Assembly: GCF_003334785.1 (NCBI RefSeq)
Contig: NZ_QOWV01000009.1
Length of the DNA: 64,000 nt
Strand: one strand, 5' to 3'
Source of the DNA: Escherichia coli
Lineage (GTDB): Bacteria; Pseudomonadota; Gammaproteobacteria; Enterobacterales; Enterobacteriaceae
Shown here piece by piece: positions 19,698-40,361 of the stretch (positions are counted from its first letter, which is position 1; every line of letters starts with the position of its first letter). The position numbers and the translations under genes are program-made. The notes beneath the pieces were generated by a model, which was not told where the DNA came from, ran no database searches, and saw only the letters and a program-made list of their open reading frames with translations.

Positions 19698-20984
19698 TTA
19701 CGCGTTATAGGCATTCTCGCCGTGGCTGTTGACATCCAGCCCTTCTCGCTCCTGCTCTTCCGGTACACGCAGACCAACCGTCAGATCCGCCAATTTGTAG
19801 CCGATAAATGCCACAACACCGGACCAGACGATCGTAATGGCGATGCTTTCCAGCTGTACCAGCAACTGATGGCCCATCGTCACACCTTCAGCGAAGCCCA
19901 CGCCGCCCAGCGAGCTGGCGGCAAAAATCCCGGTCATGATACAGCCGACAATGCCACAAACGCCGTGCACACCGAAGACATCGCAGGGATCATCCACCCG
20001 CAGCAAGCGTTTGAGCATGGTAACGCCCCACAAGCCCGCCAGACCAGCTACCACGCCGATAATCAACGCGCCGCCAACCCCAATGTAGCCGCAGGCTGGC
20101 GTCACGCCGACCAGACCGGCAATCGCGCCAGAACACGCCCCCAGCAGTGAAGGCTTACCACGCAGCGCCCATTCACCGAAGATCCAGCCAAGAATTGCCG
20201 CCGCCGTTGCGACCACAGTATTCACAAATGCCAGTGCCGCGATTTCATTCGCCGTGCCCGCTGACCCGGCGTTAAAGCCAAACCAACCGATATAGAGAAT
20301 GGCAGTCCCGGTGAAGACCATCGGCAGGTTGTGCGGTTTAAACGCCTCTTTACCGAAGCCCACGCGTTTTCCTATCAGATACGCGCCCACCAGACCGGCG
20401 ATTGCGGCGTTAATGTGCACCACGGTGCCACCCGCGAAATCCAGCGCACCGTGAGAAGCCAGCAAACCACCGCCCCACACCATATGCGCAATCGGAATGT
20501 AAGAGAGCGTCAGCCATACCACCACGAAAATCAACACAGCTGAGAAGCGGATTCGTTCCGCCAGCGCCCCAACTATCAAGCCGACGGTAATGCAGGCAAA
20601 CGATCCCTGAAACGCCACGTGGATATACTGATAAATGCTGCCCATCACCGCCGTCAGTTCGATGTTTTTCAGCATCAACCAGTTAATGTTGCCGAAGAAG
20701 TTGTTGCCCTCACCAAACGCCAGCGAGTAACCGTAAACCACCCAGAGAATACAGACCAGTGCAAATGTCACCGTCACCTGCGTCAGCATCGACAGCACGT
20801 TTTTGCCGCGAATCAACCCACCGTAAAACAGGGCAATCCCCGGAATAGTCATAAACAGCACCAGCGCAGTACAAATCATCATAAACGCATTGTCGGCTTT
20901 ATCGGCCACCGCAGGTGCAGCCATTACCAGTCCCGGAAGCATCGCCAGTGAAGCAAGCCCAGTTTTTATCGTCGCTATCTTCAT
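19698..20984 (-). CDS. amtB: ammonium transporter AmtB
   Basis: ORF 19698..20984 (-), 428 aa, signal peptide then polytopic membrane protein. Confidence 0.96.
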   Translation of the reverse strand: MKIATIKTGLASLAMLPGLVMAAPAVADKADNAFMMICTALVLFMTIPGIALFYGGLIRGKNVLSMLTQVTVTFALVCILWVVYGYSLAFGEGNNFFGNINWLMLKNIELTAVMGSIYQYIHVAFQGSFACITVGLIVGALAERIRFSAVLIFVVVWLTLSYIPIAHMVWGGGLLASHGALDFAGGTVVHINAAIAGLVGAYLIGKRVGFGKEAFKPHNLPMVFTGTAILYIGWFGFNAGSAGTANEIAALAFVNTVVATAAAILGWIFGEWALRGKPSLLGACSGAIAGLVGVTPACGYIGVGGALIIGVVAGLAGLWGVTMLKRLLRVDDPCDVFGVHGVCGIVGCIMTGIFAASSLGGVGFAEGVTMGHQLLVQLESIAITIVWSGVVAFIGYKLADLTVGLRVPEEQEREGLDVNSHGENAYNA

Positions 20985-21013
20985 TTTTCGTTCCTGTTGC
21001 TGTGTGCCAGAGA

Positions 21014-21352
21014 TTACAGCGCCGCTTCGTCGGCTTCGCCGGTACGAATACGAATGACGCGTTGCAATTCAGCGACGAAGATTTTGCCGTCGCCAATTTT
21101 TCCGGTGTAAGCCGCCTTACTGACGATATCGATCACTTCATCGAGTTGGTCATCAGCAATCGCCACATCAATTTTTACTTTTGGCAGGAAATTGACGCTG
21201 TATTCCGCCCCCCGGTACAGCTCGGCATGCCCTTTCTGACGCCCGAAACCTTTCACTTCGGTGACGGTCAGGCCCTGAATACCAATGGAAGATAACGCTT
21301 CACGAACGTCTTCCAGCTTGAATGGTTTGATTATCACGGTCACCAGCTTCAT
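21014..21352 (-). CDS. glnK: nitrogen regulatory protein PII-2 (GlnK)
   Basis: Internal Met of ORF 21014..21490; 112 aa, MKLVTVIIKPFKLEDVREALSSIGIQGLTVTEVKGFGRQKGHAELYRGAEY (T-loop Y51); 29 nt upstream of amtB. Confidence 0.95.
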   Translation of the reverse strand: MKLVTVIIKPFKLEDVREALSSIGIQGLTVTEVKGFGRQKGHAELYRGAEYSVNFLPKVKIDVAIADDQLDEVIDIVSKAAYTGKIGDGKIFVAELQRVIRIRTGEADEAAL

Positions 21353-21404
21353 AGATCCCCTCCGGTCAGAATTCGGTAATGGTTCTGCTACACGAAGAAG
21401 GTAT

Positions 21405-21420
21405 TGCAAGCGGTGTGCCA
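21405..21420 (-). promoter_or_regulatory. sigma-54 (RpoN) -24/-12 promoter of glnK-amtB
   Basis: Minus strand reads TGGCAC-ACCGC-TTGCA, the sigma-54 consensus (TGGCAC-N5-TTGCA), about 55 nt upstream of the glnK start codon. Confidence 0.8.
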
Positions 21421-21532
21421 GAAATGAAAAACGAGAAAGAGAGCAGGAAGTTAAGAAGTTTGAAAATGAAAACGCACTATGACAGTGCACAGTGCGTTAC
21501 ATTTTTGCACCAACGATGAAATATTGCGCTAT

Positions 21533-25079
<3,547 letters not shown>

Positions 25080-32707: not shown

Positions 32708-35062
32708 CTATTTTGCAGTCACAACCTGCATACCAGACGGTTCATTTTGCAGCGCCAGAGTCAGAACTTCCTCAATGCGCTTCACAGGATGAATGTCCAG
32801 ATCGGCAATTACGTTGTCAGGAATCTCTTCCAGATCGCGTTTATTTTCGAACGGAATTAGCACTGTTTTAATCCCGCCGCGATGCGCTGCCAGGAGTTTT
32901 TCTTTCAAACCACCGATCGGCAGTACCTGACCACGCAGAGTGATCTCACCGGTCATTGCCACATCGGCACGAACCGGGTTACCGGTCAGGCAAGAAACCA
33001 GCGCGGTGCACATAGCAATACCGGCACTCGGACCATCTTTCGGCGTCGCACCTTCCGGTACGTGGACGTGGATGTCACGTTTTTCGTAAAAATCAGGGTT
33101 GATCCCCAGTTTTTCCGCACGCGCACGAACCACCGTTAACGCCGCCTGAATGGACTCCTGCATCACTTCGCCGAGCGAACCGGTATAGGTCAGTTTGCCT
33201 TTACCCGGAACACATGCGGTTTCAATGGTCAGCAAGTCACCGCCCACTTCCGTCCACGCCAGACCGGTTACCTGACCGACACGGTTTTCGTTATCCGCGC
33301 GACCATAGTCGAAACGCTGAACACCGAGATAGTCATGCAGGTTATCGCCGTTAATTTCGATATGTTTTAATGACTTATCGAGCAGTAACTGCTTAACCGC
33401 TTTGCGACACAGTTTGGAGATTTCACGCTCCAGACCACGCACGCCCGCCTCACGGGTGTAGTAACGAATAATGCCGATAATGGCGCTATCGTCGACGGTC
33501 AGCTCACCTTTTTTCAGTGCATTACGTTCAATCTGCTTCGGCAGCAGGTGACGTTTGGCGATGTTCAGTTTTTCATCTTCGGTATAACCGGAGAGGCGAA
33601 TCACTTCCATACGATCCAGCAGCGGTGCCGGAATGTTCATGGAGTTCGACGTCGCGACAAACATCACGTCGCTGAGATCGTAATCCACTTCCAGGTAGTG
33701 GTCGCTGAACGCTACGTTCTGCTCTGGATCCAGCACTTCAAGCAGTGCAGAGGCCGGATCGCCACGCATGTCAGAAGACATTTTGTCGATCTCATCGAGC
33801 AGGAACAGCGGGTTTTTCACGCCCACTTTCGCCATTTTCTGGATCAGTTTACCCGGCATAGAACCGATGTAAGTACGGCGGTGACCACGGATTTCCGCTT
33901 CATCACGCACGCCGCCCAGCGCCATACGGACATATTTACGCCCGGTGGCTTTGGCAATGGACTGACCAAGAGAGGTTTTACCTACCCCCGGCGGCCCTAC
34001 CAGGCAGAGGATCGGTCCCTTGATTTTGTTGACACGGCTTTGAACCGCAAGATACTCAAGGATTCGATCTTTCACGCGCTCCAGACCATAATGGTCGGTA
34101 TCAAGGATTTCCTGCGCCTGACGCAGGTCTTTTTTGACCTTGCTACGCGCATTCCACGGCACCTGTACCATCCAGTCGATATAACCACGCACTACGGTCG
34201 CTTCTGCCGACATCGGAGACATCATTTTCAGCTTCTGCAACTCTGCTTCCGCTTTCTCTTTTGCCTCTTTCGGCATCTTCGCCGCGTCGATTTTGCGCTT
34301 CAGGGCTTCGTTTTCGTCCGGCGCGTCGTCCATTTCACCGAGTTCTTTCTGAATAGCTTTCATTTGCTCGTTCAGATAGTACTCACGCTGGGATTTCTCC
34401 ATCTGCTTTTTAACGCGGTTGCGAATGCGTTTCTCAACCTGCAGCAGATCGATTTCCGATTCCATCATTGCCATCAGATATTCCAGACGTTCGTTAACGT
34501 CGGACATCTCCAGAACAGACTGTTTGTCAGCCAGTTTCAGCGGCATATGTGCAGCAATGGTATCCGCCAGACGCGCCGGATCGTCGATGCTATTCAGCGA
34601 CGTCAGCACTTCTGGTGGGATTTTTTTGTTCAGCTTGATGTAGCCTTCGAACTGGCTGATTGCAGTACGCACCAGCACTTCCTGTTCCCGCTCATCAATG
34701 GTCGGCGACTCCAGATACTCCGCCTTCGCAGAAAAGTGTTCGCCATTGTCAGAGAGCGCAGAAATACGCGCGCGCTGTAACCCCTCGACCAGCACTTTGA
34801 CGGTGCCGTCAGGCAGTTTCAGCATCTGCAATATAGAGGCCACGGTCCCGACGGTGAAAAGATCGTTTACACCCGGCTCATCCGTTGAAGCTTCTTTCTG
34901 CGCGACCAGCATAATTTTTTTATCATGGTCCATCGCCGCTTCCAGACAACGGATAGATTTTTCCCGCCCGACAAATAAGGGGATGACCATGTGCGGATAA
35001 ACCACCACATCGCGCAGCGGCAATACGGGGATTTCAATGCGTTCAGAACGCTCAGGATTCAT
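32708..35062 (-). CDS. lon: ATP-dependent protease Lon
   Basis: Internal Met of ORF 32708..35107; 784 aa, [37 protein letters not shown]...; Walker [10 protein letters not shown]; catalytic Ser in PKDGPSAG. Confidence 0.97.
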
Positions 35063-37381: not shown

Positions 37382-37452
37382 CATAACAATCTTTTGTTGT
37401 TACGCTAACACCGAAAGAGGCTTTTCGCACGGTTCCATGCAAAATTCATGAC

Positions 37453-37484
37453 AAAAAAAAGCCCACCACCTGGCGGTGACGGGC
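37453..37484 (-). terminator. tig intrinsic terminator
   Basis: GCCCGTCACCGCCAGGTGGTGGGC hairpin followed on the minus strand by TTTTTTTT (plus-strand AAAAAAAA at 37453-37460), about 35 nt past the tig stop. Confidence 0.75.
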
Positions 37485-39782: not shown

Positions 39783-40361
39783 ATGTTCAAAAAAATCCTC
39801 TTCCCGTTAGTTGCTCTGTTTATGCTTGCAGGATGCGCAAAACCGCCAACAACTATTGAAGTTTCCCCGACGATTACACTGCCACAGCAGGATCCAAGCC
39901 TGATGGGCGTCACCGTAAGCATTAATGGTGCCGATCAGCGTACCGATCAGGCGCTGGCAAAAGTCACCCGCGATAATCAAATCGTTACCCTGACCGCCTC
40001 CCGCGATCTGCGTTTCCTGCTGCAAGAAGTGCTGGAAAAACAGATGACCGCGCGTGGTTACATGGTTGGTCCGAATGGCCCGGTTAATCTGCAAATCATC
40101 GTTAGCCAACTGTATGCTGACGTGTCCCAGGGCAACGTGCGCTACAACATCGCGACCAAAGCGGATATCGCCATCATCGCTACCGCGCAGAATGGCAACA
40201 AAATGACCAAAAACTATCGTGCCAGCTACAACGTTGAAGGTGCGTTCCAGGCCTCCAACAAAAATATCGCCGATGCGGTTAACAGTGTGCTGACCGATAC
40301 CATCGCTGATATGTCTCAGGACACCAGCATCCACGAATTCATCAAGCAGAACGCGCGTTAA
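39783..40361 (+). CDS. yajG: lipoprotein YajG
   Basis: Internal Met of ORF 39624..40361; 192 aa, MFKKILFPLVALFMLAGCAKPP (lipobox). Confidence 0.88.
   Translation: MFKKILFPLVALFMLAGCAKPPTTIEVSPTITLPQQDPSLMGVTVSINGADQRTDQALAKVTRDNQIVTLTASRDLRFLLQEVLEKQMTARGYMVGPNGPVNLQIIVSQLYADVSQGNVRYNIATKADIAIIATAQNGNKMTKNYRASYNVEGAFQASNKNIADAVNSVLTDTIADMSQDTSIHEFIKQNAR

Follow-up and report, generated by a model that had tools for sequence, protein, structure and literature searches.

The window, that is the whole 64-kb stretch of Escherichia coli DNA that was analysed, contains at positions 21353–21532 exactly the 180-bp intergenic region between mdlB and glnK. Both genes are read from the minus strand. 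The mdlB stop codon TGA (21533..21535) forms the upstream edge of the region, as seen in the sequence, in the list of open reading frames and in the K-12 RefSeq annotation, and mdlB thus ends only 180 bp upstream of glnK in the same orientation. The glnK coding sequence (21014..21352, minus strand) encodes a P-II family nitrogen regulator of 112 aa with its ATG at 21352..21350. A Shine-Dalgarno sequence GGAGGGG (21357..21363, minus strand) is found 4 nt 5' of this ATG and is conserved in our alignment. The coding sequence of amtB (19698..20984, minus strand), an ammonium transporter of 428 aa, follows 3' of glnK, and the two genes form the glnK-amtB operon according to the literature. In the K-12 record the genes are named mdlA, mdlB, glnK (P-II family nitrogen regulator), amtB (ammonium transporter), tesB and ybaY.

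When 1 kb with the region at its centre is used as query, it matches E. coli K-12 MG1655 with 100% identity, and the whole mdlB-glnK-amtB stretch of the window is likewise 100% identical to this strain. The query is present in one copy each in 5424 of 5426 complete E. coli genomes; the mdlB-glnK intergenic region alone is also single-copy, at an identity of at least 95%, in the same 5424 of 5426. Window positions (w) can be converted to U00096.2 coordinates (x) by w = 493174 - x, a map that was checked with four published sigma-54 motifs, each of which lies at its predicted position. RefSeq has no annotated feature inside the intergenic region, which is normal for promoters. An Rfam scan of 20900–21900 at a permissive E-value finds no known RNA family; its sole match, a eukaryotic snoRNA, scored 20 bits where the gathering score is 50 and was rejected as noise.

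The sigma-54 core promoter CTGGCACACCGCTTGCA is found at 21405..21421 on the minus strand by consensus search, by alignment and by comparison with a published ChIP-seq motif. Within it, TGGCACACCGCTTGCA (minus strand, 21420..21405) matches TGGCAC-N5-TTGCA with 0 mismatches. It is the sole exact match in the 64-kb window, where 0.03 would be expected from shuffled sequences. When up to one mismatch is allowed, two further sites appear, and the resulting 3 sites against 3.65 expected are no more than chance. The GG doublet at 21419/21418 (-25/-24) and the GC doublet at 21407/21406 (-13/-12) are 10 bp apart. The element is on the right strand, and its motif end lies 53 nt from the glnK ATG. From the -12 position and the rule that transcription begins 19 bp 3' of the motif centre, the start is predicted near 21394 (+/-1), which would leave a leader of 42 nt.

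The published data agree with this assignment. The sigma-54 ChIP-seq peak OS03, assigned to glnK, was reported with the motif CTGGCACACCGCTTGCA and a centre at 471761 (Bonocora et al., PMC4591121). This centre falls exactly on window position 21413, and the published motif matches the window base for base. The same study predicted the glnK start 42 bp from the gene, and cites an EcoCyc (2015) flag by which the promoter is 'predicted' and not experimentally confirmed. Zhao et al. (PMC2831329) give tttcTGGCACACCGCTTGCAATacct as the known glnK promoter and report that glnK mRNA goes down 18.8-fold upon deletion of rpoN. A sequence-only reading of this DNA had placed TGGCAC-N5-TTGCA on the minus strand at 21405–21420 and judged it correctly positioned 5' of glnK. 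The motif is indeed there as the only exact match in the window, and its placement is borne out by the 53 nt to the ATG, by its conservation and by the agreement with OS03.

Three other published sigma-54 ChIP-seq motifs are present in the window, all at the positions predicted by the coordinate map: OS02 upstream of clpP (37438–37454, minus strand), IA04 inside yajG (39918–39934, minus strand) and IA05 inside acrR (8148–8164, plus strand). These motifs are degenerate and are missed by the strict consensus search.

Upstream of the core promoter, a dyad GCACTATGACAGTGC (plus-strand reading) is observed at 21474–21488. The sequence-only reading had described a dyad at about 21475–21490 as a possible NtrC half-site pair; the dyad is present, with its position 1–2 nt off. 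It is contained in a proximal NtrC-type site, site 2 (TGCACTGTCATAGTGCG, 21473..21489), which is centred at 21481, about -87, and agrees with the consensus at 9/12 positions. A distal, weaker NtrC-type site, site 1 (TGCAAAAATGTAACGCA, 21493..21509), is centred at 21501, about -107, and agrees at 7/12 positions. The two centres are 20 bp apart, about two helical turns, and therefore two dimers would be placed on one face of the DNA. NtrC probably binds the distal 17-mer as well, and these two sites are the most plausible candidates for the 17-mers that it contacts in glnKp.

To be noted, the sites are weak by consensus. Site 2 has 3 mismatches to TGCACC-N5-GGTGCA, a level for which the window contains 32 matches where 35.6 are expected, so that its consensus match is no better than chance there. 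For the bare dyad GCAC-N7-GTGC, 2 occurrences are counted in the window where 1.95 would be expected. Because neither the consensus counts nor the bare-dyad counts are above chance, an NtrC motif match alone was not used as evidence, and the significance of the dyad comes from its conservation and from published binding data. The sigma-54 element therefore stands on sequence alone, while the dyad does not. The other GCAC-N7-GTGC dyad in the window is GCACTTTGACGGTGC at 34792–34806 (plus strand), corresponding to about 458.4 kb of U00096.2 by the coordinate map.

The spacer between enhancer and core (21421..21472, minus strand) is 52 bp long and 83% pyrimidine on the sense strand, and its length varies between genera. 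No match to the IHF consensus WATCAANNNNTTR with up to one mismatch is found in the mdlB-glnK intergenic region. IHF-assisted looping is therefore not proposed.

The glnK loci of 79 species were compared, and mdlB is found upstream of glnK and co-oriented with it in 14 Enterobacterales of this set. When the upstream regions of 15 Enterobacterales are aligned, with genera ranging from Escherichia to Yersinia and Photorhabdus, the mean column identity is 40%. Upstream of the Shine-Dalgarno sequence and the ATG, the invariant columns form two islands only. The first, GCAC..T.GTGCG, corresponds to 21488–21485, 21479 and 21477–21473, that is the dyad of site 2. The second, TGGCA plus TTGC, corresponds to 21420–21416 and 21409–21406 of the sigma-54 core. 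Judged from the alignment, the invariance of the dyad in these 15 Enterobacterales fits a real NtrC site.

A sigma-54 element (GG-N10-GC, up to two mismatches, within 400 bp upstream of glnK) is present in 59/79 species. In the same set, the 200 bp preceding the sigma-54 element contain NtrC-like 17-mers with up to two mismatches at a density of 3.20 per kb. The glnK-amtB coding sequences, used as a control, contain them at 0.11 per kb, which makes the upstream region 29-fold denser. From the 59 species and this enrichment it follows that the architecture is old and widespread. In E. coli the centre of site 2 is separated from TGGCA by 61 bp, in other genera by 70–115 bp; the sigma-54 motif stays at a constant 64–79 nt from the ATG across Enterobacteriaceae. 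The distal site (21493–21509) is kept in Escherichia, Citrobacter, Enterobacter and Klebsiella, where the tandem of NtrC sites is thus maintained, and it is degenerate in Salmonella.

Klebsiella and Enterobacter have a third NtrC-like site (e.g. TGCACCACCAGCAGGCA) at the very beginning of the intergenic region, whose first base is also the final base of the mdlB stop codon (locus L082, about 455–473; loci L004, L005 and L006, first bases after the mdlB stop). It has no E. coli counterpart in the mdlB-glnK intergenic region.

Occupancy of the region by sigma-54 and NtrC in vivo and the dependence of glnK mRNA on rpoN and glnG have been shown in the cited papers. By ChIP-seq, NtrC peak 1 is glnK-amtB with 39.7-fold enrichment (Brown et al., PMC4066584). 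In the same study glnK mRNA was not readily detected after deletion of glnG and was restored by complementation. The reported interval, 471741–471821, corresponds to window 21433–21353 and lies over the core promoter and leader, 40–76 bp downstream of our proposed sites; this offset is within ChIP resolution, and the peak is not a site-level proof. By gSELEX, peaks of both RpoN-holoenzyme and NtrC are found in the mdlB-glnK spacer (Shimada et al., PMC8743547). Schumacher et al. (PMC3870243) describe glnKp as a 'simpler' promoter that depends exclusively on NtrC phosphorylation, and report that NtrC-specific activation at glnKp is 400-fold higher upon ammonium starvation. No paper in which either of the two NtrC 17-mers is printed was found by full-text literature search, and a study of acid resistance and NtrC (PMC5217608) does not mention glnK. 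The suggestion in the sequence-only reading that the dyad is an NtrC half-site pair gains support from the invariance in 15 Enterobacterales together with the published NtrC binding and glnG data. The nitrogen-limitation architecture that it expected here is likewise upheld by the published NtrC and sigma-54 occupancy and by the rpoN and glnG dependence.

Could the sigma-54 motif be a silent binding site, while glnK is transcribed from a different promoter or by polymerase that reads through from mdlAB? Under standard conditions most E. coli sigma-54 sites are bound in an inactive state (PMC4591121), and mdlB is co-oriented, with its end at a distance of 180 bp from glnK. However, the 18.8-fold loss of glnK mRNA without rpoN (PMC2831329) and the finding that it is not readily detected without glnG (PMC4066584) are opposed to this explanation, as is the constant distance between the sigma-54 motif and the ATG across Enterobacteriaceae. 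Furthermore, a scan of 20900–21800 for sigma-70-like promoters gives 0 sites, and the terminator-like hairpin and the anti-Shine-Dalgarno silencing of read-through transcripts, both described below, argue against expression by read-through. We give this explanation practically no chance. The 180-bp mdlB-glnK intergenic region is almost certainly the nitrogen-regulated promoter of the E. coli glnK-amtB operon, with a sigma-54 core and upstream NtrC sites. It is glnKp itself and not merely a glnKp-like element, and the promoter was already known.

The features of glnKp suggest the following mechanism. Sigma-54 RNA polymerase would bind the -24/-12 element (21421..21405) as a closed complex which does not start transcription unaided. 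When nitrogen runs out, NtrB would phosphorylate NtrC. Dimers of NtrC~P would then occupy the dyad sites at about -87 (21473–21489) and -107 (21493–21509) and assemble into an ATPase oligomer. Through a loop of the short pyrimidine-rich spacer this oligomer would come into contact with the polymerase, and ATP hydrolysis would open the promoter. Transcription would begin near 21394 and proceed through the 42-nt leader and glnK, and then into amtB. We infer the loop geometry and the exact start nucleotide from the arrangement of these elements. According to a proposal relayed in PMC3870243, glnKp fires after NtrC has risen through glnAp2. The sub-consensus character of the two sites (9/12 and 7/12) fits this published view, in which glnKp fires only after a rise of NtrC~P, and also the reported requirement of glnKp for more NtrC~P than glnAp2 has.

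A CT-rich block CCTTCTTCG is found at 21393..21401 on the minus strand and spans the predicted start at 21394. This is the published anti-Shine-Dalgarno 'insulator', which is present only in read-through RNA. The CT-rich block of glnKp has been demonstrated experimentally to silence translation of read-through transcripts (Levy et al., bioRxiv 10.1101/086108). Our folds are in line with this result. In the read-through RNA 21440..21340, CUUCUUCG (21400–21393) pairs with CGGAGGGG (21364–21357) at the Shine-Dalgarno sequence of glnK. In the fold of the RNA that begins at 21394, most of the CT-rich block is missing and no unusual structure is observed.

Terminator scanning and folding reveal a terminator-like RNA hairpin on the minus strand, that is on the mdlB sense strand. 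The feature covers 21461..21498, with the hairpin itself at 21498..21471, and consists of the arms AACGCACUGUG/CAUAGUGCGUU followed by UUUUCAUUUU. The scan reads it as AACGCACTGTG-CACTGT-CATAGTGCGTT and then TTCATTTTCA. The hairpin starts 35 nt past the mdlB stop codon. Its stem is 11 bp long and includes 5 G-C pairs, its loop comprises 6 nt, and its folding energy is -14.9 kcal/mol with z = -4.06. The upstream A-tract can pair with the U-tract, which extends the hairpin and brings the energy to -18.8 kcal/mol. To be noted, the hairpin is composed of the right halves of both NtrC sites and a 3-nt linker. From its shape and position, the hairpin can reasonably be considered a putative intrinsic terminator of mdlAB. 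A literature search on mdlB, glnK and terminator returned nothing relevant, and the Term-seq data that were searched contain no entry for mdlB or glnK. The sequence-only account of the upstream region had recognized the dyad and had missed the second site, this hairpin and the CT-rich anti-Shine-Dalgarno element.

The hairpin was surveyed in 24 distinct Enterobacteriaceae versions of the region, from Escherichia, Citrobacter, Enterobacter, Superficieibacter, Salmonella and Klebsiella. In 24/24 of them a hairpin closed by site 2 is present, with energies from -7.0 to -17.8 kcal/mol, and 4–8 T are found in the next 8 nt. In a pair count over 13 sequences, 89.9% of cells are paired and there is one compensatory pair only (C-G in 7, U-A in 4), which is probably one evolutionary event; palindromic protein sites would yield pairing anyway, and the count cannot separate selection for RNA structure from palindromy.

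Outside this group the picture changes. The T-run after the kept NtrC site is absent in Yersinia, Rahnella, Acerihabitans, Photorhabdus and Serratia. Instead, Serratia (L120–L124 type) and Y. aldovae (L010) have a separate GC-rich hairpin with a T-run right after the mdlB stop. Hafnia-type loci (L126, L128) are an exception to this pattern, with a separate hairpin after mdlB and also a partial T-run past the NtrC site. The separate hairpins of the Serratia-, Y. aldovae- and Hafnia-type loci all lie within about 60 nt past the mdlB stop. Erwinia is similar to E. coli, with a T-run after the NtrC site. In Enterobacteriaceae and Erwinia the T-run is thus present, and a separate terminator is not detected in most of them.

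In Klebsiella an extra terminator-like GGCCGC-TTT-GCGGCC-T6 hairpin is observed between the enhancer and the core promoter, where it abuts the -24 element. It is found in L082 at about 610–635, in the K. pneumoniae-type loci L081–L090 and L103–L107, and in the K. aerogenes-type loci L097–L102.

These data also bear on what the dyad is conserved for. If it were kept as the stem of the mdlAB intrinsic terminator and not as an NtrC site, one would point to the hairpin and T-run past the mdlB stop on the mdlB sense strand, to its folding energy and z score, to its presence in all 24 unique Enterobacteriaceae sequences and to the compensatory change from C-G to U-A in the stem. However, covariation is weak as support here, with a single pair that probably reflects a single event. 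The bases that do not vary in the dyad coincide exactly with the NtrC half-sites GCAC/GTGC, and they are still unchanged in Yersinia, Rahnella, Acerihabitans and Photorhabdus, all without the T-run. Serratia retains GCAC-N7-GTGC without the T-run as well, and both Serratia and Y. aldovae have their separate hairpin and T-run after mdlB. In addition, NtrC occupancy and glnG dependence are published (PMC4066584, PMC8743547). Conservation of the dyad as a terminator stem in place of an NtrC site is therefore very improbable in our view, and we keep the dyad as part of a probable NtrC site.

A different possibility is that both functions reside in the same sequence. In Enterobacteriaceae the tandem NtrC sites may act as the glnK enhancer in the form of DNA and, together with the T-run, as the mdlAB intrinsic terminator in the form of RNA. 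We consider the chances of this dual use to be about even. The comparative pattern points the same way, with a separate terminator and no T-run after the NtrC site in Serratia and Y. aldovae and the reverse in most Enterobacteriaceae and Erwinia; the Hafnia-type loci are the exception. If the dual use is true, glnK-amtB would be protected from read-through by two barriers in a row, the enhancer itself and then the anti-Shine-Dalgarno block. It would also be a compact example of one sequence serving as protein-binding DNA and as terminator RNA, and it would be relevant to the reuse of glnK enhancer fragments in synthetic circuits. This overlap of enhancer and terminator is the only lead that goes beyond the literature examined, and its interest is modest.

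A comparison with known systems places the region clearly. It is the same element as E. coli glnKp, the upstream region of b0450: sequence, motif, promoter string and coordinates match, and nothing differs. In studies of bacterial nitrogen control this promoter serves as a reference, and it is a standard reporter with which NtrC~P activity is followed. Its logic is the same as that of glnAp2, with a sigma-54 -24/-12 core, tandem upstream NtrC dimer sites and looping by NtrC~P. The NtrC sites of glnAp2 are located at -108 and -140, 32 bp apart, while those of glnKp are at about -87 and -107, 20 bp apart; the glnKp sites are nearer to the core and further from the consensus. Furthermore, glnKp has neither an overlapping sigma-70 promoter, as glnAp1 is, nor governor sites like p3/p4 of glnAp2 (PMC3870243). 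The insulator of Levy et al. (bioRxiv 10.1101/086108) is from the same promoter, and its CT-rich block, centred at about -4, pairs with the Shine-Dalgarno sequence in read-through RNA. That work tested a 50-bp glnKp fragment in synthetic constructs, and mdlB is not mentioned there. The hairpin on the mdlB transcript resembles canonical intrinsic terminators in its 11-bp stem, 6-nt loop, U-tract and upstream A-tract and in its location just past a stop codon. It differs from them in that the U-tract is interrupted (UUUUCAUUUU) and the stem is made of transcription-factor half-sites.
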